Positions 22,830 through 37,030 of a stretch of DNA of 38,819 nucleotides are shown piece after piece; position 1 is the stretch's first letter, and each line of letters begins with the position of its first letter. The notes beneath the pieces are model-generated. The model did not search any database and had not been told where the DNA came from. It saw nothing but the letters and a program-made list of their open reading frames with translations. The position numbers and the translations under genes are program-made. Source of the stretch: a virus (lineage: Duplodnaviria > Caudoviricetes); the IMG/VR virus record IMGVR_UViG_3300037424_001022, positions 1 to 38,819 of that record. The stretch is one strand, 5' to 3'.

Positions 22830-25800
22830 ATGGCAAAAGATAAAAGACCGAGACAGCGGGAAACTAATCAATCGGGGTTACAGGATTACCTAAATTCGCT
22901 TACCGTTCCCGAAACAGATACGGCACGTATTGAGGAGGAAACAGGCCTTAGCCGAGTTAAATTCCCCTGGGAGGATAAATATGTCAGACCTGCAGGAGAA
23001 ACCGATGCAGGAGTAAAGCCTGCAGCTTTACCCGATACACTGAAAGAAAGACAGCCATCCAGGTTTGAGGATTTATTCAAACCTACGACTACAGAAGCAA
23101 GCACACTAAAAACCCCTGGTGTTAATAAATTAGCTGTATCACCTGAGCAAGGTGCTGATGAAGAACTACCTGGCAGATTAAAGAATCTTTCTGAACTCAG
23201 GACTGAGATTGATGATAGACTGAAAACTATTGATAAAAGTAATGAGGGTGAGGTTACTGAATTCAATAAGCTGATAGATCTGTATGAAGGTCAACTGAAT
23301 CAACTGAAAACAAACTTTCCATTATTTAATCTTTCTCCTGATGTAGTTGAAAAAACTCTTACAAGCCGAATGCCCGATATGCAGCAAACCGAACTCAGGC
23401 CTTTGGATGAAAGTAACCTGGATGTTGATTTCAGTGTAATGCCTGGATTAAAAGTAAAAGGTAAGAAGCCATTAGGTGAAACCGAATTAAGTGATAATCA
23501 GAGGGCATATAATTACCAGTTACTGGTAAAAGCGATCAATAGGGATATTCCGATAAGTGAAGCTGAGAAACAATCTGATATTCGTGGCACTCAGTTAGGC
23601 AGGCTTGGAGGCAGTTTTGCACAGGGACTACTTTCAGTTCCCGAAGGAATAGCCGGAATGGGTGAGTATTTGGCTGATAGAACTGGTGTAAATGTGTTTA
23701 AGGAATTCTTTAAGGAAAAAGGTCAGGGATTACAGAATATAATTGAGGGTGTTGCACCCGCTGATCCAAACTTTGCTGAGGGTATTTCGTCGGGATTCGG
23801 TTCAATGATTACGTTCATGATACCCGCAACGGCACTTGCAAATATTGGAAGTTACGCGGGATTATCAGCGAGAGTTGCAAAATGGTTGGGTATTGGTGCT
23901 GCATCTATGTTGGAATCAATGACTGAGGCAGGAATAGTTTACAGGCAATCCAATGGTGATGCTGCAGCAACGGAAAAAACTTTCCTGGCTAATTTGCTGC
24001 TTATCACAGTTACAAACAAGTTTGGTATTTTGGGTGATCAGGCAGTAGGATTAAAGAAAGCTTTGCTGAGTATGCCAATGGAAGGACTGCAGGAAGGATT
24101 TCAAGAGATTATCAGCAATGCTTCACAAAACAAACCTATTCCCTGGAATGACGTATTATCATCCCTGGCAATCGGTGATATTGTGGGTGGTGCTACAGGA
24201 TTCGTTACTCCAAGTCAGCCAAATAGTTTTGAAGATTTATTCCCCCGACACGCTACAAGCCCAGCTACGCCAACTGAAACCCCACTGCAGCCCCCCAGTG
24301 GGGTTGAGGTTGGCAAGATTGGTGGTGATATAGCCGAGCAAACCAAAGATTTAATGAGTTTGGAAGAACTTGCACAAGAAAAAAAGATGGAGACTGAATT
24401 AAGCAAGCTGAAAGTAAAGTTTGAAGGTGTTGAAAAAGATGATCAGGGCAGGCAGTTTGTGTATTTTACTGATGAATCAATAAAACCAAAGACTGAAAAG
24501 GGTGAACAGGTTCCGGCTACATATCGGATACCGTTAGAAAAATATACTCCCGATGCTGTAAAAACTATGATAACAAGAGGGAGAGAGAAATTTGGAAAAG
24601 AAACAGGAGTTACAGAACCAGTTAAAGCTGCAGAGCCAATTAAGGAAACAGTTGCACCGATTGAAGAAATTAAAGCTGAAAAGGTGGAAGTTGCTGAAAT
24701 TCCTGCAAAGGTAGAGCCATCCAAAACCGAGGCTACAAGCTACAAGGATATGGATATTCCAACGTATATGGAATTAACGCCATCGGATATTGAGGATTTT
24801 GATTTACAAATATCTGAGGAAGAAACCAGGCAAACTGATTCACTTGATCGGGATATTAAGAATGTGCAGCAATCCCTTACAGAACTCAAAGGTAAAAAGG
24901 ATAAGAAAACCAGGGAACTAAAAACAGAACTCAATAAAAAACTTGATACACTGAAATCCGAAAAAAAGAAAATTCAATCCAAATACGAAAATGATTCGAT
25001 TGAATTTGGTTTGCAGTTGAGAGATTTCATCATTGATAAAGCCAAGAAAGAAGGAGTTAATTTACCGGAGGATGAACTATATGAGGTTGCTGATGATGTG
25101 TTTATGAAGCTGCAGCCACCTTTCACCGAAAAGACCTGGAAAGTTAAAGTTAGTAAGCTGATTGATGATAGTATTGCACAGTTCAAAGAAACCTTGGGAA
25201 CTGAAACCCCTGTAGAGCCTACGGCTGAGGATTTCAAAAAGATGAGTTATTATCAGTTTGCAAAGTGGTATTCTAAAAATGGTAGTGATCCACAGACACG
25301 AATGAGGGCTGGAAACTTAGAAATGGGTAGAACTGATGAATTTGTAAGTGCTGCTTTTAAAAATGCTCAAGAGGGTGGAGAAAAGCCAGTTATTAAAGAG
25401 CCTGCAGTGGAAGAATTACCAGGTGATATTGAGGATTTGATAGATAAATATGAGGGTAGATTTGAAGTTGAAAAAAGTAAAATTGGAAAGGGTTACAGAG
25501 TAGTTGATCAGCAAACCGGTGAAGTTGCAAGAATCGGTGGTGAATTAGATACGGCCCAAAAGCTTGATACTGCACTGGCAGAATACGTTAAGAAACATCC
25601 ACAAATGAAAGCCAAACCCGTAGAGACTATTCCGGTTAAAAGTAAAAAGGTTGAAGAATCGGAATTAAAGGTAGGAGATATTCTTGATCCACAGGGTAAA
25701 ACTAATATGGTTGGGAATGTAACTATAACAGAAATTTCTGGTAATACCATCAAGTTTACTGATTCAAAGGGAACTGACTATAGCGGGATGGCAAAATCAC

Positions 25801-28800
25801 AAGTAAAAAAACTTATTAAAGAGGGTAGCTGGAATAGAGTTGAGCCAACAATTATCCGGCAGAGTTTGGTTACTGGTGAAGTTGATGAAATTAAACCACC
25901 TATAGAAAAAGAGGAACCAGTTGAGGAAATATCAGACGAAAAATATGTAAGTGATTTGGTTGATGAGGATAAGGCAGCATTTGATATTGCTTTCAAAGAT
26001 AAGTTTCCTGCTACAGCAACAAATGAGTTGTTTGCAGTATTAACAGGTGGCTTGCCTGGTGCTGGAAAATCCGCTGTTAAAAAGGAAGTTGAGATAGATA
26101 AAGTTGCTGCAGTGAATATTGACAGTGATGAGACAAAGAAACTACTTAAAGGTAATGCACCCGAAATACATGAACGAAGTTCCGAAGTAGCCAAAAGGCA
26201 AGTTTCAAAGGTAATAGATCAGAATTACTCAACAATTTACGATTCTCAGTTATCAAACTATCCGCTGGCTAAAAAGCTGATTGATGATAGAATTGAGAAA
26301 GGTGGCAAGGTTTACATTGCTTATGTTAGCATTGGGCCGGAAACATCGAGAACACGAAGCGTAACCAGGTATTTAGCATTTGAATCTGATAGATGGATAC
26401 CTGAAAAGGCCATAGTTAAGGGTGAAAACAGGGCTGCACCGACATTTGCACAAATTTACCAGGAATACAAGGATAATCCGCAAGTATCATTTGTGGTTAA
26501 AGATGTAGATGAAGATTATGCTACTCCAAAAGCCGTTTTATCTATAATCAATGGTAAAGAGAAATTCGTTAATCAAAAACTACTTGACAACATCGTGGAA
26601 ATTGATTATGTTTCACGTGGGAAAGGAGACAATAAACGCTATGAAAGGAAAAATGAATACACGCTTGAAGATCTCCACAGAAGCGGAGATGAAATCCTTA
26701 GACGAATCCATTCTGGCCTCGATAGAAAGAGGAATGAATTCCCTGACCGGAACATCCCAAACTACACACTTGAAGAACTCAGAGAAAAAATCCGATCAGA
26801 AGAACTCAAAGCCCGAAGGGAAGGAGGCGAAGTAATTGATGAAGAATATACAGTTAGTGAGCCAAGTGAAAGAGTGGATGAAGGATTACAAGCCGAAGGA
26901 ATACAAAAGCCTGCAGAGGGAGGGGAAACTACAGGAGGAATCGGAAGCACTAGCGAAACAGGTAGGACAGATGATCAACCAACTTCTGGAGAGCAACCCG
27001 AATTTGAACCCAATCGAAGCGAGGGAGTTAGCGTACGCGGAACTACTCCCGACAAACCAAAGTTAAATCAAAATAACTACCGAATAGTTCCATCCGATAA
27101 AATCGGTGAGGGAAGTTTCAATATTGATGATAAAATTGCATCCAATGTTGAAGCCATCAAAACACTAAAGAAAATCCTTAAAGAAAACAGACCTGCCAAA
27201 CCAGGTGAGAAAAAGAAACTGGTGCAGTATGTTGGTTGGGGTGGACTTCCACAAGCATTTAATCAGTATGAACCGAAATACAAACCATATTACGACACAC
27301 TGAAAAAGCTGCTTACCGAAAAAGAATTTGATGATGCAAGAGCATCTACAATCAATGCTCACTATACATCACCCGAAGTAATTAACACTATGTATGATGT
27401 GTTGAAACGATTAGGTTACAAAGGTGGTGGCCGAGTGCTGGAACCAGGAATGGGAACCGGACACTTTTTCGGAATGATGCAAAAGAATGTTTCTGATGTT
27501 ACTGAACTGCATGGTGTTGAACTTGATACACTGACGGCACAGATAGCCAGGCTGTTATATCCTGATGCAATTATAAACAGTGGTGAGAATGTTGGTAAGG
27601 GATATGAAGAAACTTTTTATCCTGATAATTATTTTGATGTTGCTGTTTCTAATGTTCCGTTTGCCAATATTAAAATGACAGACCGATTCGATACCAAGGC
27701 TGATTACAGTAAGATGAAATTATCACTTCATAATTTCTTCTTCGCTAAAACAATGGAAAAGTTAAAACCAGGTGGATTGATGATGTTTGTAACGACACAC
27801 TACACGCTGGATGCAACTGATTCAAGTTTCCGAAATTACTTATCAACCAAAGCTGATTTCCTTGGTGCAATCAGATTACCGAACACAGCATTTAAGAAAA
27901 ATGCCAACACTGATGTAGTAGCTGATATACTTGTATTCCGAAAGAAAGATGGAACTGAAATTAAAAAATCCAGGGACTTCATTGAATCTAATCGGGATGA
28001 AGAACTGAGCATTTACTACAATGATTATTTCAGAGAATTCCCCGAACAGGTATTGGGAACCATCACGAATAAAGGCACAATGTATCAAAAGGGTGAATTG
28101 ACAGTTGAGCCTAATAAAGAAGTTCCGATGGAAAAACAGTTGAATGATGCAGTCAAGCACTTTCCGACAAATATATTTGGTGCTAATCCTGATCAGAAAG
28201 CAAATCAGCAAAAGTTTGATGATGTAAAGCTTACGAATAAGAAAGAGGGCAGTTATGTTAAAGAGGGTAAGAAGATATACCAGTCAAAAGGTAAAAAGCT
28301 GGTTGAGGTTGGTGAATTAACCGACAAACAGCAAGCGAAAATGGATAAGCTGATTCAGTTGAGGGATGGTTTGAATTTGCTGATTGATACACAGCGAACC
28401 AATGCAGATGATAAAGCATTTGAACCGATACTGAAAAAAGTAAACAAGATGTATGATGATTTTGTAAAGAACGAAGGAAACATATCATCACTGGCAACAC
28501 GCAATGTATTCAAAGATGATCCTGATTACTACAGGCTGCTTGCACTGGAAGTAATTAACCCTGAGACAGGTGAGGTAGTAGATAAAGCTGGTATTTTGAA
28601 GGGTAGAGTATTATTCCCTGAAAAATCAATTACCAAAGTTGATAGCAGTAAAGAGGGATTGGCAGTAGTTCAGAATGAACTTGGAAAGGTTGATATTGAC
28701 CGGATTGCAAACCTGACAGGCAAACCCGCTGAGGCAGTAATAAAAGAATTGGAAGATGAAGAACTCATTTTTGAAAACCCCGAATCAAATCAATATGAAC

Positions 28801-31800
28801 CTGCAGATACTTACCTTTCAGGAATGGTAAGACAAAAGCTTAAAGTTGCTGAGGAATTGGTAAAAATCAATCCTAAATACCAAAAGCATATTGAAGCACT
28901 TAAAAAGGTTCAGCCGACAGATTTGAAATATTCTGAAATCAGTGTTCAGCCTGGTGCTACATGGGTTGAGCCAGGTGATTATACTGAATTCTTAGAGACT
29001 TTGGTGGATGTTCAGAATTCCAATATTAACGTGAAATACAACACAGCATTAGACCGGTGGCAGGTGGATGATTATGATTGGAGAGTTCAACAATCATCAA
29101 ACAACAATAAGAAATTCGGAACAAATTACTACACTGCAACCAGGCTATTTGAAGATGCACTGAATCACAAGCTGCCTACTGTATGGTATAAGGATCCGGT
29201 TACGGAAGCCCGAAAAATAGATGCTGATAAATCCGCTGTAGTAAGAGAAAAACAGGAACAAATCAAAAATGAATTCAAAAACTGGATTTGGAACGATAAA
29301 GACAGGAGAGACAGGCTCACCCGAAAATACAATGATGAGTTCAATCAGATTAGAGTTAGAACTTACGATGGCAACCATTTATCATTCCCTGGATTAAGCA
29401 AAAGGATTCAGGGCAGGGATTTCAACCTGAGAGATTATCAGAAAAATGCAATTTGGAGAATAACACAAAACCCGAATAATTTGATTGCACACGCTGTAGG
29501 CAGTGGTAAGACTTCAACAATGGCTACTGCAGCTATGGAACTAAGGCGATTGGGATTAAAGAAGAAGATTTTAATTGTAGTTCCAAACCATTTAACTGAG
29601 CAATTCGGCAGGGAATTTCAAGAACTATATCCACAGGCCAGGATATTAGTTCCATCAAAGACTGATTTTGAGAAAAAGAACCGGAAAGTAATTCTATCAA
29701 GGATTGCTACAAATGATTGGGATTCTGTAATTGTAGCATATTCTCATTTTAAGATGATACCGATGAGTGCTGAGGCAGTGGAAAAGTTTCTCACGAAACA
29801 ATTAAATGAACTTGAAATTGCAATCATTGAGGCCAAGGGTGAGGACAGACGCGATACCCGATTGATTAAAGAACTGGAAAATGCAAAGAAAAAGCTGAAA
29901 GAGAAGATCGTAAAACAGATTGAAAAGATAAAAAAGGATATTACGATCAGTTGGGAAGAATTAGGAATTGATCAGATGTTTGTTGATGAAGCCCACAATT
30001 TTAAGAATTTCAAAGTTCCAACTAAATTAACAGGTATTGCTGGTTTGGGTGGTTCCAATGCTGACAGGGCAATGGATATGATGATGAAGATTGAGCATAT
30101 CAACGATAATTATGGTGGTGGTGTTACGTTTGCAACCGGAACCCCTGTAAGTAATAGCCTGGTAGAATTCTTTGTAATGCAGCGATACTTACAGCCAAAA
30201 GCACTAAAGAATTTTGATATTTACAATCTTGATCAGTGGATATTCAATTTCGGTAAAATACAAACCAAGCTTGAACTTACTCCCGAAGGTAATGGCTACA
30301 GGTCAAAAACAAGATTTTCAGCACTTGATAATTTACCGGAGTTAATGCAGATCTATTCAGAGGTAGCTGATATTATCGGGCCGGAAGTAATTCAGAAACA
30401 AGTTAAGCTGCCTACTCACGTTGGAGGTAAACCAAGGATAATTGAAATTGAGCCAAGTGATGAAATGCTCAAATTTTGGGAAAACCTTGTAAAGCGGGCT
30501 GAATGGTGTAAAAAGAATCCGAAGGAAAGAAGGGTTGATAATTTCCTTAAAATAACCAATGACGGCAGGTTTGCATCAGTTGATTTAAGATTAACTAATA
30601 AAGCTACAGATGATCCGAATAGTAAATTCAACAAGTGTATTGATGAAGTTTCGCGGATTCATAAACAGGAAAAAGAGAAAAAGGGGACGCAATTAGTATT
30701 CCTGGATATGGGTGTTCCAGGTGGCAGCCGAATGGATTTGTATGCTGAAATGAAAAAGAAGCTGATGGCTAAGGGTATGCCCGAGAAAGAAATTGCTTTC
30801 ATTCATTCTGCTAAAACCAAAGCCCAAAGACTTGCATTGTTCGATAAGCTTAACATGGGTGAAGTTAGAGTATTGATCGGGACTACTGATAAGATGAGTG
30901 AGGGAATGAATGTTCAGAAACGATTGTATGCAATTCATCATTTATCGGTTCCCTGGAAACCATCACAGATTGAGCAACGTAATGGCAGAATTTTCAGATT
31001 TGGAAACATATACGATCAGGTTGAAGAAATCCGGTATGTAGTTAAAGGAGTGAACAAAACCACAGGATTTGATTCTTACCTTTGGCAAATACTTGAAAAT
31101 AAAGCACGTGGAATTGCTCAGGCAATGAATACTGATACTTCCGTCAGATCAATCGAGGAAGCTGATGGAAGGGCTTTAACTTATGCTGAGGTTAAGGCTA
31201 TTGCATCCGGTAATCCGCTGATACTTGAAAAGGTTGAACTTGATAATGATGTAACCAGGCTGGAAAGACTTGAAACTGAGTGGAGAGTTAATTTAAGCGA
31301 CACACAAAGGGAAATTGCTACACTACCCGAAAAGATTGATAATTCCAGGGAGTTGGTTAAAAAATACAAAGGCTTGAAGTTCCCCGATTCATTTGATACC
31401 ATTATTGATGGTGTGAAATATTCTGAGGAATCTGATAAAGAAGCCAGGAAAAAAGCTGGTGAACAAATAATAAAGATTGCCGGTGATTTTGTTACGGCTG
31501 CAGATAAAGCTGGAAAGCCATCAGACTTTAAGAAAATTGGCAGTATTGGAAAGTTTGATGTTGGAATCAGGGTTGAGGAGGTTTACATTGATGGTAAACC
31601 ACAATGGATTTCCAACCTGGTAACATATCCACAGGGAACGGACTGGTTTGCTCAAACTGCTATCAGCTATCCGGTAAGTGTTGTAGGTGGTGTTAATTCC
31701 AATCATATAATGGAATACGGCACAGTTATCAACAAGTTATTAACCAGTGAAGAACAAACCCTGGGTATTCGTGAAAAGCGATTAGAGGACTTGAAAAAGG

Positions 31801-34800
31801 AAATTGACAAAAAATCTCCTTATTCAGATGATCTCAAAGCTAAACTGAAACGGCAGCAAGAACTGGATGCTTTGCTGGAAGTTAAAGACAAAAAGAATAC
31901 TACTGAGGATGTTGGCCAGGGTGGAATCGAACAAGAGGAATCTGATCTTGAGCAAGTTGATGAGACTGAAAAGACTGAGGAAGGTGAAGAAACCGAGGAA
32001 ACAGTAAAGCCAAAGTTGTATGAATTGCTACGGACTGCAGAAGTATTCAAGGTTAAAGAATTGGCCGAGGAATCCGGTAAGAGTGAAAAAGAAGTAGCAC
32101 AGGCCTTGAATGATTTGAGGAAACAGAAGTTAATCGAATCGGTGGAAGGTGGATTTAAGCCCACAGACGAATTTAAGATACTCCTGGAAGATTTGAACCG
32201 GAACCCTGAGAAGTATGAGGAAGATTTCAATAAACTCTATTCTAACCCGCTGCCTGCCATCCTAAAGGGTGTTTTGAATGTTCCAACGATTGTTGATGAT
32301 ATGTGGAAAAGGCTGGCAGGAGAAAAGATTTACAAGGGCTTGGGTAGTGTAGTTGATAAGATCACTCCTGAAAGACTGAAAGAATTGGTTGTAACCAATT
32401 ACGGACTACCTACAGAATATCTGACAACCAGGAGAGAGGCTTTTGATGCTTTTGAAAGATATAAAGCAATAGCCAAAAATATTGCTGAAAATCTGAAATA
32501 TCGTAATCCGGTTACTGGTGAAGTATTTACAGAGGCCGAACAAAAGCGTTTGGCCCAGGTTATCAAAGGTTCAATTACCAACGTTCCATTGATCAAACAA
32601 AGGGCTGACCTTGCAATCAGAGAAATTAAAGAACTTGAAAAATTGGGTAAGGAATTAGAAGTATTACCGATTGAAACTTACAATACAAAGCTACCGAGAA
32701 CCAGGATAAATGAGCTACTGGAAGAAAAACGGAAATTGGAGGAGAAACGTGATAAAATCCTTAAACAATTCAAAAAAGTAAAGGGTGAGGATAAAGAAGC
32801 TGAGAAGATCCGCAAGCGTTCAACCAAGGCCATTGATGATAAGATTGAGGATATTCATAAGAGAATCCGAACCAGCTATGTTTTGGGTGGAACCGGTTAC
32901 TTAAAGCGGGTGTATTTAACGAAGGAACAGGAATTACGATTATCCAAATATGGAATAACTAGGCCAACACGACTTGACTTAACATCAGCAATTCAGAGAA
33001 AAGATATTCCCTGGGAAGTAAGAAAGGAAATGGGAGAAATACTGACCGCTGCTTATCCTGCAGCAAAAGGTATTATGTTGGAGGGTAAGGATGTATCATT
33101 CGGTAGATTCTTTGAGGTGATCAGTGAAAATCCATCGTGGAGTAGTGAATCTGAGGTTGCTGGTTGGGTTCAGATGCCGGAGGATTATAAACTTGGTAAG
33201 CTGCAAGGAATGTGGGTAGAACCGCATATTGCTGGTGATATTAACGATGTGCTAAAGTTTACTGATAAAGATGAAATGGATAAGTTCTTAAAGAAGATCA
33301 ATAGTATTTGGAAAGCAAGTAAGACTATAATGAATCCATCTACTCACCTGAGAAATGTTTACAGTAACACAATACTACTAGATTTCAGCGGTGTTTCTCA
33401 CGTTGATCAGTTGAGGATATTACCAAAGGCTATTCAGGCAGTTCAGGGTAAGGGCAAATATGCTCAGGAATTCGAAGCCAGCCATTTGAATAATACTACT
33501 TTCACGAAAGAGGAATTAGGAAATTATCTCAGCCAGGTAGAAGCTGATGGCCGTTCATTCCTGGATTTATCACTTGGTGAAAAGATTGCTAAGGTATATG
33601 GAAAAGCAACACTGGTTGATACCAAGTTAGGTGAGTTCATGGGCAAAGTTTATCAGATGGAAGAAGTATTGGGGAAATCTGTTAAATTCATCAGTGAACT
33701 TGAAAAGGGTAAAACAATTAAAGAAGCCAGGCAGGAAGCTAACAAATGGCTGTTTGATTATACTGAAATACCAAGGATTGTAAGATACCTGAGAACTAAT
33801 CCTGTATTTGGTGTTCCGTTCATTACGTGGAGTTATAAAGCATTTCCGCGGATAATTGAAGCTGCAATTACAAGGCCTATAAGTTTTTGGAAATATCCGG
33901 TTATATTCTCAGCACTGGCCAAGTATGCACTTCAAGCACTTGATTTGGATGATAAGGATTGGGAAGAAATTAAAGCATATATGCCCGAAAGAATGTTGAA
34001 GGGTGAATGGCTGTTACTTCCGTTTAAGGATGAAAACAATAAGATTCAGATGGTTGATTTAACCTGGATATTACCTTACAAAGATGTGTATGATGTGATG
34101 AGTAGTGGTGTAACGCTGGTTACTACCGGTCAGTTCAATAATTCTGATGATATTGTAGATGGTTTGTTAGGACTAATTCAAGCACCGATACTCAAATCAT
34201 TTTCAGAATTGTCAACTAACCGGAATACTTACACTAATCAGGAAATTTGGTTTGATATTGATGAACCGCAAGAAAAGCTGCTTAAAGTATTCGATTATAT
34301 GTATAAAACTTACATGCCATCACTTGCACCCGAAATACCCTGGTTATCGAGGGGTGGATATGCTTATCACAAGCTGAGATCAGTAATTACCGGCAGGGAT
34401 GATTATTATGGCAGAACATTCGGAATAATACCTGCAATTACTTCAAGTTTGCTTGGTATTAAAACATCACCTATTGAGCCTGAAAAGAATGTTGATATGT
34501 TTTTGGCAAAGAAACAGAGTGAACTTATTCAGCTTGCTACAAAGAGGAACCAGGTATTACGTGATGGAGGATTGACCGAAACCCAAAGAATATCAAAGGC
34601 TGAGGAACTTGAAACTCAGATGGATATGGTAAGACAGCAAATTGGAGATTTGAAATTGCCTGTTAAGAACCAGGATATTATCAAAACTGAATCATCCATC
34701 CGTAAGCTGCAGGATAAACTGAGCAATGTAAGCTTAAAGCAGGTCAATACACGAAGGGAATTAACGATCAAAATTAACCAGTTGAAAATAAAGCTGAATG

Positions 34801-34913
34801 AACTGATGAGTAGTCCTGATGCTTACACTGGTGAATTCAAAAAGGGTAAAGAGGAAAAGCAGCGAAAGACTTTCAATAAGTCAACCAGCAAGCCATTTGG
34901 TAAAGAATTCTGA
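22830..34913 (+). CDS. Giant polyvalent DarB-like virion protein: zeta-toxin-like P-loop kinase, N6-adenine DNA methylase, SNF2-type helicase, winged helix, LPD38-like C-terminus
   Basis: GGLPGAGKS at 26046-26072 with IDSDETK and HERS; VLEPGMGTG at 27435-27461 and NVPF at 27651-27662; AHAVGSGKT at 29487-29513, DEAH at 29985-29996, FATGTP, EQRNGRIFR at 30972-30998; HTH at about 32013-32175; C-terminal 'NP.THLRN', 'FDY', 'PF.TW.YK', 'NRNTYTNQEI'. Confidence 0.9.
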   Translation: MAKDKRPRQRETNQSGLQDYLNSLTVPETDTARIEEETGLSRVKFPWEDKYVRPAGETDAGVKPAALPDTLKERQPSRFEDLFKPTTTEASTLKTPGVNKLAVSPEQGADEELPGRLKNLSELRTEIDDRLKTIDKSNEGEVTEFNKLIDLYEGQLNQLKTNFPLFNLSPDVVEKTLTSRMPDMQQTELRPLDESNLDVDFSVMPGLKVKGKKPLGETELSDNQRAYNYQLLVKAINRDIPISEAEKQSDIRGTQLGRLGGSFAQGLLSVPEGIAGMGEYLADRTGVNVFKEFFKEKGQGLQNIIEGVAPADPNFAEGISSGFGSMITFMIPATALANIGSYAGLSARVAKWLGIGAASMLESMTEAGIVYRQSNGDAAATEKTFLANLLLITVTNKFGILGDQAVGLKKALLSMPMEGLQEGFQEIISNASQNKPIPWNDVLSSLAIGDIVGGATGFVTPSQPNSFEDLFPRHATSPATPTETPLQPPSGVEVGKIGGDIAEQTKDLMSLEELAQEKKMETELSKLKVKFEGVEKDDQGRQFVYFTDESIKPKTEKGEQVPATYRIPLEKYTPDAVKTMITRGREKFGKETGVTEPVKAAEPIKETVAPIEEIKAEKVEVAEIPAKVEPSKTEATSYKDMDIPTYMELTPSDIEDFDLQISEEETRQTDSLDRDIKNVQQSLTELKGKKDKKTRELKTELNKKLDTLKSEKKKIQSKYENDSIEFGLQLRDFIIDKAKKEGVNLPEDELYEVADDVFMKLQPPFTEKTWKVKVSKLIDDSIAQFKETLGTETPVEPTAEDFKKMSYYQFAKWYSKNGSDPQTRMRAGNLEMGRTDEFVSAAFKNAQEGGEKPVIKEPAVEELPGDIEDLIDKYEGRFEVEKSKIGKGYRVVDQQTGEVARIGGELDTAQKLDTALAEYVKKHPQMKAKPVETIPVKSKKVEESELKVGDILDPQGKTNMVGNVTITEISGNTIKFTDSKGTDYSGMAKSQVKKLIKEGSWNRVEPTIIRQSLVTGEVDEIKPPIEKEEPVEEISDEKYVSDLVDEDKAAFDIAFKDKFPATATNELFAVLTGGLPGAGKSAVKKEVEIDKVAAVNIDSDETKKLLKGNAPEIHERSSEVAKRQVSKVIDQNYSTIYDSQLSNYPLAKKLIDDRIEKGGKVYIAYVSIGPETSRTRSVTRYLAFESDRWIPEKAIVKGENRAAPTFAQIYQEYKDNPQVSFVVKDVDEDYATPKAVLSIINGKEKFVNQKLLDNIVEIDYVSRGKGDNKRYERKNEYTLEDLHRSGDEILRRIHSGLDRKRNEFPDRNIPNYTLEELREKIRSEELKARREGGEVIDEEYTVSEPSERVDEGLQAEGIQKPAEGGETTGGIGSTSETGRTDDQPTSGEQPEFEPNRSEGVSVRGTTPDKPKLNQNNYRIVPSDKIGEGSFNIDDKIASNVEAIKTLKKILKENRPAKPGEKKKLVQYVGWGGLPQAFNQYEPKYKPYYDTLKKLLTEKEFDDARASTINAHYTSPEVINTMYDVLKRLGYKGGGRVLEPGMGTGHFFGMMQKNVSDVTELHGVELDTLTAQIARLLYPDAIINSGENVGKGYEETFYPDNYFDVAVSNVPFANIKMTDRFDTKADYSKMKLSLHNFFFAKTMEKLKPGGLMMFVTTHYTLDATDSSFRNYLSTKADFLGAIRLPNTAFKKNANTDVVADILVFRKKDGTEIKKSRDFIESNRDEELSIYYNDYFREFPEQVLGTITNKGTMYQKGELTVEPNKEVPMEKQLNDAVKHFPTNIFGANPDQKANQQKFDDVKLTNKKEGSYVKEGKKIYQSKGKKLVEVGELTDKQQAKMDKLIQLRDGLNLLIDTQRTNADDKAFEPILKKVNKMYDDFVKNEGNISSLATRNVFKDDPDYYRLLALEVINPETGEVVDKAGILKGRVLFPEKSITKVDSSKEGLAVVQNELGKVDIDRIANLTGKPAEAVIKELEDEELIFENPESNQYEPADTYLSGMVRQKLKVAEELVKINPKYQKHIEALKKVQPTDLKYSEISVQPGATWVEPGDYTEFLETLVDVQNSNINVKYNTALDRWQVDDYDWRVQQSSNNNKKFGTNYYTATRLFEDALNHKLPTVWYKDPVTEARKIDADKSAVVREKQEQIKNEFKNWIWNDKDRRDRLTRKYNDEFNQIRVRTYDGNHLSFPGLSKRIQGRDFNLRDYQKNAIWRITQNPNNLIAHAVGSGKTSTMATAAMELRRLGLKKKILIVVPNHLTEQFGREFQELYPQARILVPSKTDFEKKNRKVILSRIATNDWDSVIVAYSHFKMIPMSAEAVEKFLTKQLNELEIAIIEAKGEDRRDTRLIKELENAKKKLKEKIVKQIEKIKKDITISWEELGIDQMFVDEAHNFKNFKVPTKLTGIAGLGGSNADRAMDMMMKIEHINDNYGGGVTFATGTPVSNSLVEFFVMQRYLQPKALKNFDIYNLDQWIFNFGKIQTKLELTPEGNGYRSKTRFSALDNLPELMQIYSEVADIIGPEVIQKQVKLPTHVGGKPRIIEIEPSDEMLKFWENLVKRAEWCKKNPKERRVDNFLKITNDGRFASVDLRLTNKATDDPNSKFNKCIDEVSRIHKQEKEKKGTQLVFLDMGVPGGSRMDLYAEMKKKLMAKGMPEKEIAFIHSAKTKAQRLALFDKLNMGEVRVLIGTTDKMSEGMNVQKRLYAIHHLSVPWKPSQIEQRNGRIFRFGNIYDQVEEIRYVVKGVNKTTGFDSYLWQILENKARGIAQAMNTDTSVRSIEEADGRALTYAEVKAIASGNPLILEKVELDNDVTRLERLETEWRVNLSDTQREIATLPEKIDNSRELVKKYKGLKFPDSFDTIIDGVKYSEESDKEARKKAGEQIIKIAGDFVTAADKAGKPSDFKKIGSIGKFDVGIRVEEVYIDGKPQWISNLVTYPQGTDWFAQTAISYPVSVVGGVNSNHIMEYGTVINKLLTSEEQTLGIREKRLEDLKKEIDKKSPYSDDLKAKLKRQQELDALLEVKDKKNTTEDVGQGGIEQEESDLEQVDETEKTEEGEETEETVKPKLYELLRTAEVFKVKELAEESGKSEKEVAQALNDLRKQKLIESVEGGFKPTDEFKILLEDLNRNPEKYEEDFNKLYSNPLPAILKGVLNVPTIVDDMWKRLAGEKIYKGLGSVVDKITPERLKELVVTNYGLPTEYLTTRREAFDAFERYKAIAKNIAENLKYRNPVTGEVFTEAEQKRLAQVIKGSITNVPLIKQRADLAIREIKELEKLGKELEVLPIETYNTKLPRTRINELLEEKRKLEEKRDKILKQFKKVKGEDKEAEKIRKRSTKAIDDKIEDIHKRIRTSYVLGGTGYLKRVYLTKEQELRLSKYGITRPTRLDLTSAIQRKDIPWEVRKEMGEILTAAYPAAKGIMLEGKDVSFGRFFEVISENPSWSSESEVAGWVQMPEDYKLGKLQGMWVEPHIAGDINDVLKFTDKDEMDKFLKKINSIWKASKTIMNPSTHLRNVYSNTILLDFSGVSHVDQLRILPKAIQAVQGKGKYAQEFEASHLNNTTFTKEELGNYLSQVEADGRSFLDLSLGEKIAKVYGKATLVDTKLGEFMGKVYQMEEVLGKSVKFISELEKGKTIKEARQEANKWLFDYTEIPRIVRYLRTNPVFGVPFITWSYKAFPRIIEAAITRPISFWKYPVIFSALAKYALQALDLDDKDWEEIKAYMPERMLKGEWLLLPFKDENNKIQMVDLTWILPYKDVYDVMSSGVTLVTTGQFNNSDDIVDGLLGLIQAPILKSFSELSTNRNTYTNQEIWFDIDEPQEKLLKVFDYMYKTYMPSLAPEIPWLSRGGYAYHKLRSVITGRDDYYGRTFGIIPAITSSLLGIKTSPIEPEKNVDMFLAKKQSELIQLATKRNQVLRDGGLTETQRISKAEELETQMDMVRQQIGDLKLPVKNQDIIKTESSIRKLQDKLSNVSLKQVNTRRELTIKINQLKIKLNELMSSPDAYTGEFKKGKEEKQRKTFNKSTSKPFGKEF
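26584..26614 (+). promoter_or_regulatory. Internal promoter inside giant gene (putative)
   Basis: TTGACA (26584-26589), 17-nt spacer, TATGTTTC (26607-26614). Same geometry as the intergenic promoters at 34917 and 36709. Followed by AAAGGAG at 26622-26628. Confidence 0.6.
26641..26835 (+). CDS. Overprinted small ORF A (+1 frame, 64 aa), candidate antitoxin of the zeta-like domain
   Basis: Upstream promoter and AAAGGAG precede ATG 26641 (alternative: GAAAGGA before ATG 26653). Helical core 'STEAEMKSLDESILASIERGMNSL'. The function is inferred from position only. Confidence 0.45.
   Translation: MKGKMNTRLKISTEAEMKSLDESILASIERGMNSLTGTSQTTHLKNSEKKSDQKNSKPEGKEAK
26836..27066 (+). CDS. Overprinted small ORF B (+1 frame, about 76 aa), TnpV-like helical protein
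   Basis: Perfect AAGGAGG at 26821-26827, 8 nt before TTG 26836 (ATG at 26839). The product looks like a real amphipathic helical protein, while the host frame here is a disordered G/E/T/R linker. Confidence 0.65.
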   Translation: MMKNIQLVSQVKEWMKDYKPKEYKSLQREGKLQEESEALAKQVGQMINQLLESNPNLNPIEARELAYAELLPTNQS

Positions 34914-36708: not shown

Positions 36709-36739
36709 TTGACAAATCGTTTGTGATTTTGTAATTTTG
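36709..36739 (+). promoter_or_regulatory. Early-operon promoter with overlapping inverted repeat
   Basis: TTGACA (36709-36714), 17-nt spacer, TAATTTTG (36732-36739). ACAAA-tcg-TTTGT at 36712-36724 overlaps the -35 element. Confidence 0.7.
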
Positions 36740-36775: not shown

Positions 36776-37030
36776 ATGACATACAAACTCATCAAGCGTG
36801 AAATCAAGTTTAACAAGACTTCCAAATATCACTATCAGGTGATTGATGAAAACGGAGATATGATCAGCGAGAGGCGAAGCAATAGAGAGTATGTTGCTGC
36901 AACGATTGATGGAAAATATTACTACGGAAGAATGGATTTAGTAGGGAAGGGTGATTACAGAAAATATGGAGAAACAACCCCAATAGCTTACCTGGAAACA
37001 AAACCAACTAATCAAAAGGATAAAAACTGA
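36776..37030 (+). CDS. Hypothetical early protein
   Basis: GAAAGGA SD; first gene after the promoter. Confidence 0.7.
   Translation: MTYKLIKREIKFNKTSKYHYQVIDENGDMISERRSNREYVAATIDGKYYYGRMDLVGKGDYRKYGETTPIAYLETKPTNQKDKN

Follow-up and report, generated by a model that had tools for sequence, protein, structure and literature searches.

Genes nested out of frame in a giant phage polyvalent gene: a conserved cassette at a zeta-like kinase domain and its candidate antitoxin

Can a phage gene that encodes a toxin-like domain also encode, in another frame of the same DNA, the antidote to that domain? The question is raised by IMG/VR virus record IMGVR_UViG_3300037424_001022 (Duplodnaviria; Caudoviricetes), whose positions 1 to 38,819, read on one strand, are referred to here as the window. 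This 38.8-kb record was found to carry portal, capsid, and tail-type genes in a Pfam scan, two sediment metagenomes, one of them possibly its source, contain at least half of the window's sampled words, and its virion structural block includes a giant polyvalent gene with a zeta-toxin-like kinase domain. An original prediction, made from the sequence alone, placed a hidden promoter and a small overprinted open reading frame (ORF), here called ORF A, at the end of that domain and proposed that ORF A encodes its antitoxin. The features concerned, with lengths in amino acids (aa), are:

22830..34913, plus strand: giant polyvalent gene of the DarB-like type (4,027 aa), part of the virion structural block
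25977..26660, plus strand: zeta-toxin-like P-loop kinase domain, aa 1050-1277 (Pfam PF06414 at aa 1065-1223)
26584..26612, plus strand: internal sigma-70-type promoter-like site, TTGACA-N17-TATGTT
26622..26628, plus strand: Shine-Dalgarno (SD)-like sequence AAAGGAG for ORF A
26641..26835, plus strand: ORF A, 64 aa, basic, in the +1 frame relative to the giant gene; candidate antitoxin of the kinase domain

A nested unit at the end of the kinase domain

The coordinates originally given for the promoter-like site, the AAAGGAG, the ATG, and the 64-aa ORF are all correct, and the +1 frame is indeed open from 26551 to 27066, its sole break being the TAA at 26833-26835. The spacer of 12 nucleotides (nt) between AAAGGAG and the ATG at 26641 is longish. 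The +1 stretches at ORF A and at a second nested gene directly behind it, ORF B, are the first and third longest of the giant gene (95 and 76 codons). Another long +1 stretch, at 24070-24333 (87 codons), contains an ATG at 24118 that opens a 71-aa frame with no SD match of 5 nt, and is probably due to chance. Over the nested genes the main frame encodes the linker rich in arginine, glutamate, and glycine that had been described, these residues together making up 42% over ORF A and 37% over ORF B vs. 21% for the gene. The accompanying shift of the main frame to C-ending codons is seen over ORF A (29% vs. 12% for the gene) but not over ORF B (14%), and an unrelated stretch at 29250 is equally high.

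The promoter-like site had been said to mirror the phage's intergenic promoters, a likeness that we find to be weak, as there is a single intergenic look-alike (TTGACA-N17-TAATTT, window positions 36709-36737). This look-alike precedes small genes beginning at 36776, has the ATCGT just behind the -35 box in common with the internal site, and is likely an early promoter. The sequence TATGTTTC occurs only once on the plus strand, at the internal promoter-like site. Promoter-like matches in the window number 43 vs. 53.7 expected from shuffles; since this class is no commoner than in shuffles, the site by itself is no proof, and the case rests on comparison. When the main frame of the window was synonymously recoded with its own codon usage (20,000 trials), promoter, start with SD, and open frame were jointly kept in 0.005% of trials. 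Because of this result and the identical layout in all six other distinct close zeta loci, we regard the arrangement as more than chance.

Conservation of the ORF A cassette across zeta loci

Close zeta loci were collected by kinase-alignment scans, which yielded two metagenome loci, three viral loci, and one locus among 401 genomes, for a total of seven distinct loci with the window, at 31-38% identity. One further genome locus was identical to a counted zeta locus and so was not added. The loci of this study dropped as duplicates before counting were L071 (the contig of L001), L014 (the window), L106, L110, and L122 (all equal to L104), and L121 (equal to L111). Zeta searches with one or two query sequences retrieved nothing from viral contigs, phages, or shorter proteins. 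Five aligned loci are 28-38% identical to the window in the kinase region.

At all seven close loci the promoter-like site is present in the same register, with 9-11 of 12 consensus bases and a 17-nt spacer, and a +1 ORF of 43-65 aa follows, likewise in register. An SD match of 6-7 nt is found at six of them; at the seventh, L104, the ATG lies 7 nt behind the -10 box in a leaderless-like arrangement. A +1 frame broken in homologues, which the original prediction had named as the outcome that would count against it, was found at none of the seven, all of which keep frame, promoter, and start. At L103 a tyrosine of the main frame has changed to serine, yet the +1 GTG start is kept, and at L105 an aspartate has changed to histidine, yet the -35 box TTCATA is kept. 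T is the last base of the codon following the -10 TAT at every locus, with five different residues encoded, and L104 and L111 retain AT-rich boxes despite a G+C content of 74% and 71% at the third positions of their genes. In a recoding test carried out per locus, promoter, start, and open frame were jointly retained in 0.005-0.24% of trials. Places resembling the cassette are rare: only seven occur in the 42,735 nt of six main ORFs, and six of these lie at the kinase end.

Neither a methylase nor ORF B was found at L102-L105 or L111, for each of which 3.7-10.7 kb of sequence is available. With both missing from the available sequence of five of the seven loci, the cassette travels with the kinase and, as had been proposed, follows it into different polyvalent proteins; ORF A at these five is thus no mere leader for ORF B. 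Protein P0006, for which only protein sequence was available, keeps the same main-frame words. Among more distant zeta-like domains, that of L046 has TTGAAG-N17-CATAAT, an SD, and a 75-aa +1 ORF, and that of L112 is followed by an SD-led +1 ORF, with no promoter-like site found. The +1 ORFs of L046 and L112 have short words in common but score only p 0.06.

Some of these genes contain further nested frames. SD-led, lysine-rich +1 ORFs of 42-55 aa stand behind other unnamed domains at L101:4057-4197, L104:3781-3909, and L105:6358-6525, the one in L104 preceded by TTGTAA-N16-TATAAT. These may flag further domains that have a hidden partner. At L102:3777-3923 a second nested +1 ORF of a different kind follows ORF A (48 aa, strong SD; no Pfam or NCBIfam match).

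The zeta-like kinase domain

The domain is assigned as zeta-like, its PF06414 match scoring 53.6 bits against a curated cut-off of 22.3 (E 2.5e-14). The best Foldseek matches of its structural model (predicted local distance difference test (pLDDT) 79) are AvrRxo1, zeta, and PezT (E 2e-9 to 4e-7), all of which have small protein antitoxins, and a profile of the kinase matches PezT at E 1.3e-6. The Walker A motif GxxGxGKS is intact in the alignments, and a [DN]xD motif, whose second aspartate we take to be catalytic, aligns with the DGD of PezT. Zeta phosphorylates UDP-GlcNAc and has its ATP site blocked by epsilon (PMC4803016), and AvrRxo1 phosphorylates NAD and has Arc1 as its antitoxin (PMC5491322).

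Strain differences were taken from short contigs of sequencing runs with small shares of the window, and no RNA run was among the listed runs containing window sequence. All 10 listed differences in the kinase, which come from one strain contig, are synonymous, and the kinase is therefore under purifying selection.

We also surveyed 15 free-standing zeta-family genes, leaving out L116-L120 and longer Pfam matches, and found that five are accompanied by a small downstream partner of one family that overlaps or lies near the stop. Free-standing zeta-family genes at L114, L115, L128, L131, and L144 encode about 200-250 aa each and have a conserved small downstream partner with no library match. 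Such a gene with its partner may be viewed as an analogue of the unfused state; homology to ORF A was not detected.

ORF B and the methylase-helicase module

Directly behind ORF A, the following features lead into the next module of the giant gene:

26821..26827, plus strand: SD sequence AAGGAGG for ORF B, within the end of ORF A
26839..27066, plus strand: ORF B, 75 aa, +1 frame, four-helix and TnpV/DUF1896-like; TTG at 26836 is a possible start
27069..31004, plus strand: DarB-like N6-adenine methylase and SNF2 helicase module, directly after the ORF B stop

The DarB-like antirestriction match (phrog_10089) covers aa 1375-3091 of the giant protein. ORF B itself matches Pfam TnpV (PF14198) at 19.2 bits (E 0.0012), below the cut-off of 27 bits. 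Nested proteins were retrieved by a profile made from ORF B and its relative in L101, and 9 of the 20 scanned pass the TnpV cut-off, these also being nested in +1. For the ORF B model (pLDDT 91), the top VIA match among 48,161 chains is 2apl, a DUF1896 (PF08989) structure, with Z 6.2, a root-mean-square deviation of 3.0, and 66 aligned residues, although a Z below 8 for a helical bundle is a lead only; Foldseek returned no significant match, and ESM Atlas returned only leads below 0.9. In contrast to TnpV, which has been postulated to be an excisionase helper (PMC3158075), ORF B is shorter, stays below the TnpV cut-off, and stands in a context that points to the methylase-helicase.

Direct searches for ORF B homologues mostly found none, with one yielding a plausible 73-aa protein and one spurious match, and relatives were therefore reached via the flanking methylase. 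The 100 DarB-like methylase loci used comprise the best 80 of 435, 18 annotated phage records chosen from 123, and the remainder including the window, one duplicate having been dropped. By two linked profiles, a nested +1 ORF B member is present at 86 of the 100 loci and, after clustering at 70% methylase identity, in 45 of the 54 clusters with an internal methylase. The first profile alone gave 73 matches, of which 70 are in +1, three are in the main-frame phase about 5.6 kb downstream, and none is in +2 or on the minus strand. In 302 of 325 pairs, conservation of the +1 product of ORF B exceeds that of the main frame (mean z 8.9 vs. 1.5), and 77 of 84 ORF B-type starts have an SD match of at least 4 nt. 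With its shifted frame conserved above the host frame and with start signals, ORF B qualifies as an overprinted protein-coding gene. No ORF B member was found in the available sequence of P1 darB, Thermus Lalka8, or a Streptococcus SNF2 gene; in L015, a DUF1896 gene lies directly before a DarB-like methylase. Judging from these sequence associations, ORF B is likely a partner of the methylase-helicase module, in which case the long-unexplained TnpV and DUF1896 families gain a consistent neighbor and a likely target. The original prediction of one nested antitoxin gene thus stands as regards the presence of ORF A, but there are two nested genes, and ORF B is separate, methylase-linked, served by its own SD, and not tied to zeta. 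The ORF A cassette goes with the kinase, and ORF B goes with the methylase.

Other nested genes were seen around DarB-like methylases. Long methylase-helicase genes of 12 loci (L021, L023, L029, L030, L035, L037, L038, L043, L053, L076, L081, and L083) contain +1 TnpV-type genes 1.2-3.2 kb before the methylase, seven of them Pfam-confirmed, and at some of these loci another copy follows 4-6 kb downstream. Apparently, a third nested family is represented by a pair of similar nested +1 ORFs, each some 55 aa long, one lying about 1.4 kb ahead of the methylase in L046, the other terminating 539 nt ahead of it in L079. In Sinorhizobium phage PBC5 (L005, AF448724.1) the annotation splits the giant gene into two ORFs separated by a frame break, and an ORF B relative sits at the join, where it seems to have been read as the end of orf33. 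The public record of Pseudomonas phage Itty13 (L010) has reverse-strand hypothetical proteins in place of the giant DarB-like gene.

Is ORF A an antitoxin?

We consider it very probable that the nested unit is expressed. As to its role, the interpretation we favor, and to which we assign roughly even probability, is that a toxin-first toxin-antitoxin unit was absorbed in frame into a virion protein and that ORF A is its candidate antitoxin, left overprinted. By the criteria for toxin-antitoxin systems of type II, a small partner is always linked to the kinase (7/7 close loci), and the putative partner promoter lies inside the kinase coding region (7/7). The giant protein would be packaged and injected, on the model of its JC1 homologue, and by analogy with known relatives the kinase domain might phosphorylate a small host nucleotide metabolite and thereby harm the cell, both after injection and during late synthesis of the giant protein. 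Host RNA polymerase could use the internal promoter without the late transcript, producing a short two-gene message. From this message ORF A, a short basic one-helix peptide, would bind and silence the kinase in a producing or lysogenic cell, and ORF B would bind the methylase-helicase as an inhibitor or chaperone. Once the toxin's stop codon was lost, the kinase would have been joined to the polyprotein and the antitoxin would have ended up overprinted, so that the two could move as one cassette.

Several observations weigh against an antitoxin role or against the signals being selected for one. No family match of note was found for ORF A in Pfam, PHROGs, NCBIfam, PADLOC, or ESM Atlas, and neither it nor five relatives matched epsilon or PezA in the first four of these. 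The ORF A peptides are not detectably one family, as only 2 of 15 pairs reach p<0.05 and a common ungapped motif did no better than shuffles (p 0.43-0.47), and comparison with the partner family of the free-standing zeta-like genes gave an hhalign probability of 0.24%. Within ORF A, in contrast to ORF B, conservation favors the main frame (mean z 1.6 vs. 0.25), with +1 higher in just 4 of 21 pairs, and the three listed strain differences in the ORF A tail are all silent in the main frame while two alter ORF A (one contig, of depth 2). The promoter considered alone was kept in 0.4-61% of recoding trials, the value for L103 (P 0.61) being that expected by chance, and, with related loci, the P values obtained for each are not independent of one another. 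Residues beneath the promoter boxes fall in a predicted helix and strand, so protein constraint accounts for part of the conservation. Finally, a solitary zeta homologue from Acinetobacter is reported not to have been lethal (PMC4803016).

What is conserved for ORF A is thus its start signals and its openness only. Nevertheless, antitoxins often diverge faster than their toxins, and the poor conservation of ORF A therefore lowers the antitoxin interpretation without killing it. A helix motif in the ORF A peptides that had been spotted by eye did not beat shuffles and was rejected as evidence.

Alternative explanations

The most serious competitor, though an unlikely one in our estimation, holds that the promoter is the selected feature and that ORF A is a translated leader, serving message protection or ribosome hand-over to downstream nested genes such as ORF B, with a functionless peptide. 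This would account for an ORF A sequence that lacks conservation and falls behind the main frame in this respect, for an ORF B start within about 10 nt of the ORF A stop in the window, L101, and L046, and for the other nested SD-led +1 ORFs further downstream in L102 and L105. It fits poorly with the five of seven loci where the available sequence has no ORF B, one of which, L104, has no additional SD-led +1 ORF after ORF A, and with a cassette fixed to the kinase end and not to downstream content; moreover, a separate promoter-like site is frequent at zeta-free ORF B loci (12/79 vs. 9/312 control points). A related idea, in which the promoter drives a truncated methylase in the main frame, was discarded: in 26613-27400 there is no main-frame start whose SD match exceeds 3 nt. 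Less probable still is that ORF A is a true partner of the giant protein but no antidote, i.e., a helper in packaging, folding, or processing, or a regulator of a non-toxic kinase that serves the phage. P1 DarB depends on accessory proteins, Ulx among them, that have not been found in Bcep22-like phages (PMC9144972), the substrate-binding positions of the kinase differ from those of PezT, and the other nested gene, ORF B, goes with a module not known as a toxin. Yet the helper of a late virion protein would need no host-type promoter of its own, and the nearest solved folds are all toxins with antitoxins.

Two further explanations appear to us highly improbable. Were ORF A an alternative C-terminus reached by programmed +1 frameshifting, which would yield a shortened giant protein, the openness of the window's +1 frame from 31 codons before the ATG would be explained; however, L103 and L105 have a +1 stop one codon before the start, and the conserved SD and start codon would be superfluous. 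We give just as little credence to promoter, SD, and ORF A being by-products of conserved main-frame residues (L/F-D, Y, and Y-E-R) and an R/E-rich linker. Those residues do spell the boxes and the ATG, and the main frame is the more conserved here, but the three signals are jointly kept in at most 0.24% of recoding trials per locus, they persist after residue changes, the SD sites arise from different main-frame residues at different loci, and hardly any other such cassettes occur in these genes.

Comparison with known systems

In toxin-first type II operons the toxin gene contains a second promoter, which serves the antitoxin (PMC11951105). The window resembles them in having the toxin-like domain first, a promoter in its 3' end, and a small gene directly behind, and differs in that the kinase frame continues for 2,750 codons, leaving ORF A wholly overprinted in +1, and in that ORF A has no recognizable DNA-binding domain. 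With epsilon/zeta, PezAT, and AvrRxo1:Arc1 the window shares the kinase fold (template modeling score 0.5-0.7 of query), Walker A, an aspartate aligned to the PezT catalytic region, and a small neighbor gene. In contrast to these systems, its kinase, which is 15-18% identical to theirs, is one domain of a 4,027-aa phage protein, and Pfam, NCBIfam, and PADLOC reveal no resemblance of ORF A to epsilon or PezA. In the Rpn systems of host defense, an internal start in the toxin gene gives a putative antitoxin, RpnS, which is in frame and equals the toxin C-terminus (PMC10400984); the internal start within the toxin's own gene is a likeness, whereas ORF A is in +1, unrelated in sequence, and phage-borne.

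Rz and Rz1 act together. As in the case of Rz1, which is embedded in Rz (PMC9144972), a whole gene lies here in another frame of a phage gene, but Rz and Rz1 are a lysis pair of small genes, while the nested genes of the window have their own promoter-like site and stand at domain borders of a giant gene. The DarB-like homologue JC1 gp69 is virion-associated by mass spectrometry (PMC9144972), and zeta-like kinases are among the polyvalent-protein domains of Iyer et al. 2017 (PMC5512222). The window's giant phage protein, with its methylase-SNF2 module and zeta-like kinase, is of the DarB-like polyvalent kind, the difference being nested genes that carry no annotation in the phage records examined. 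The terms TnpV, DUF1896, and 'overlap' do not occur in the main text of Iyer et al., though its supplements may list such neighbors (PMC5512222). Internal antitoxin promoters, in-frame Rpn antitoxins, and embedded Rz1 are thus already known; our mainly open-access literature search found no out-of-frame, separately promoted companion gene on a toxin-like domain of a polyvalent protein.

More tentatively, and with less than even probability, polyvalent proteins in general could be strings of cassettes in which each dangerous domain has a separately promoted, out-of-frame inhibitor over the adjoining linker: a fast-evolving antitoxin for the kinase, a TnpV/DUF1896 protein for the methylase-helicase, and unnamed peptides elsewhere. 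If this were true, the kinase and ORF A would represent the first case in nature of a toxin gene that accommodates its whole antitoxin in a different frame, and hidden peptides would indicate which uncharacterized domains are toxins. A control element in the same DNA but in another frame would be a testable answer to how phages carry and swap toxic domains in huge virion proteins. The nested genes also form a class of small genes overlooked by annotation in well-studied phages (Bcep22, VvAW1, PEp14, and SopranoGao), and recoding or trimming the 'disordered linkers' of these giant genes would mean the loss of hidden genes.

A last observation touches the region just upstream of the kinase (window positions 25589-25994), where contigs from two sequencing runs carry a divergent variant, one of them having 295 nt in place of 67 nt, suggesting that exchange took place at the cassette's left border.

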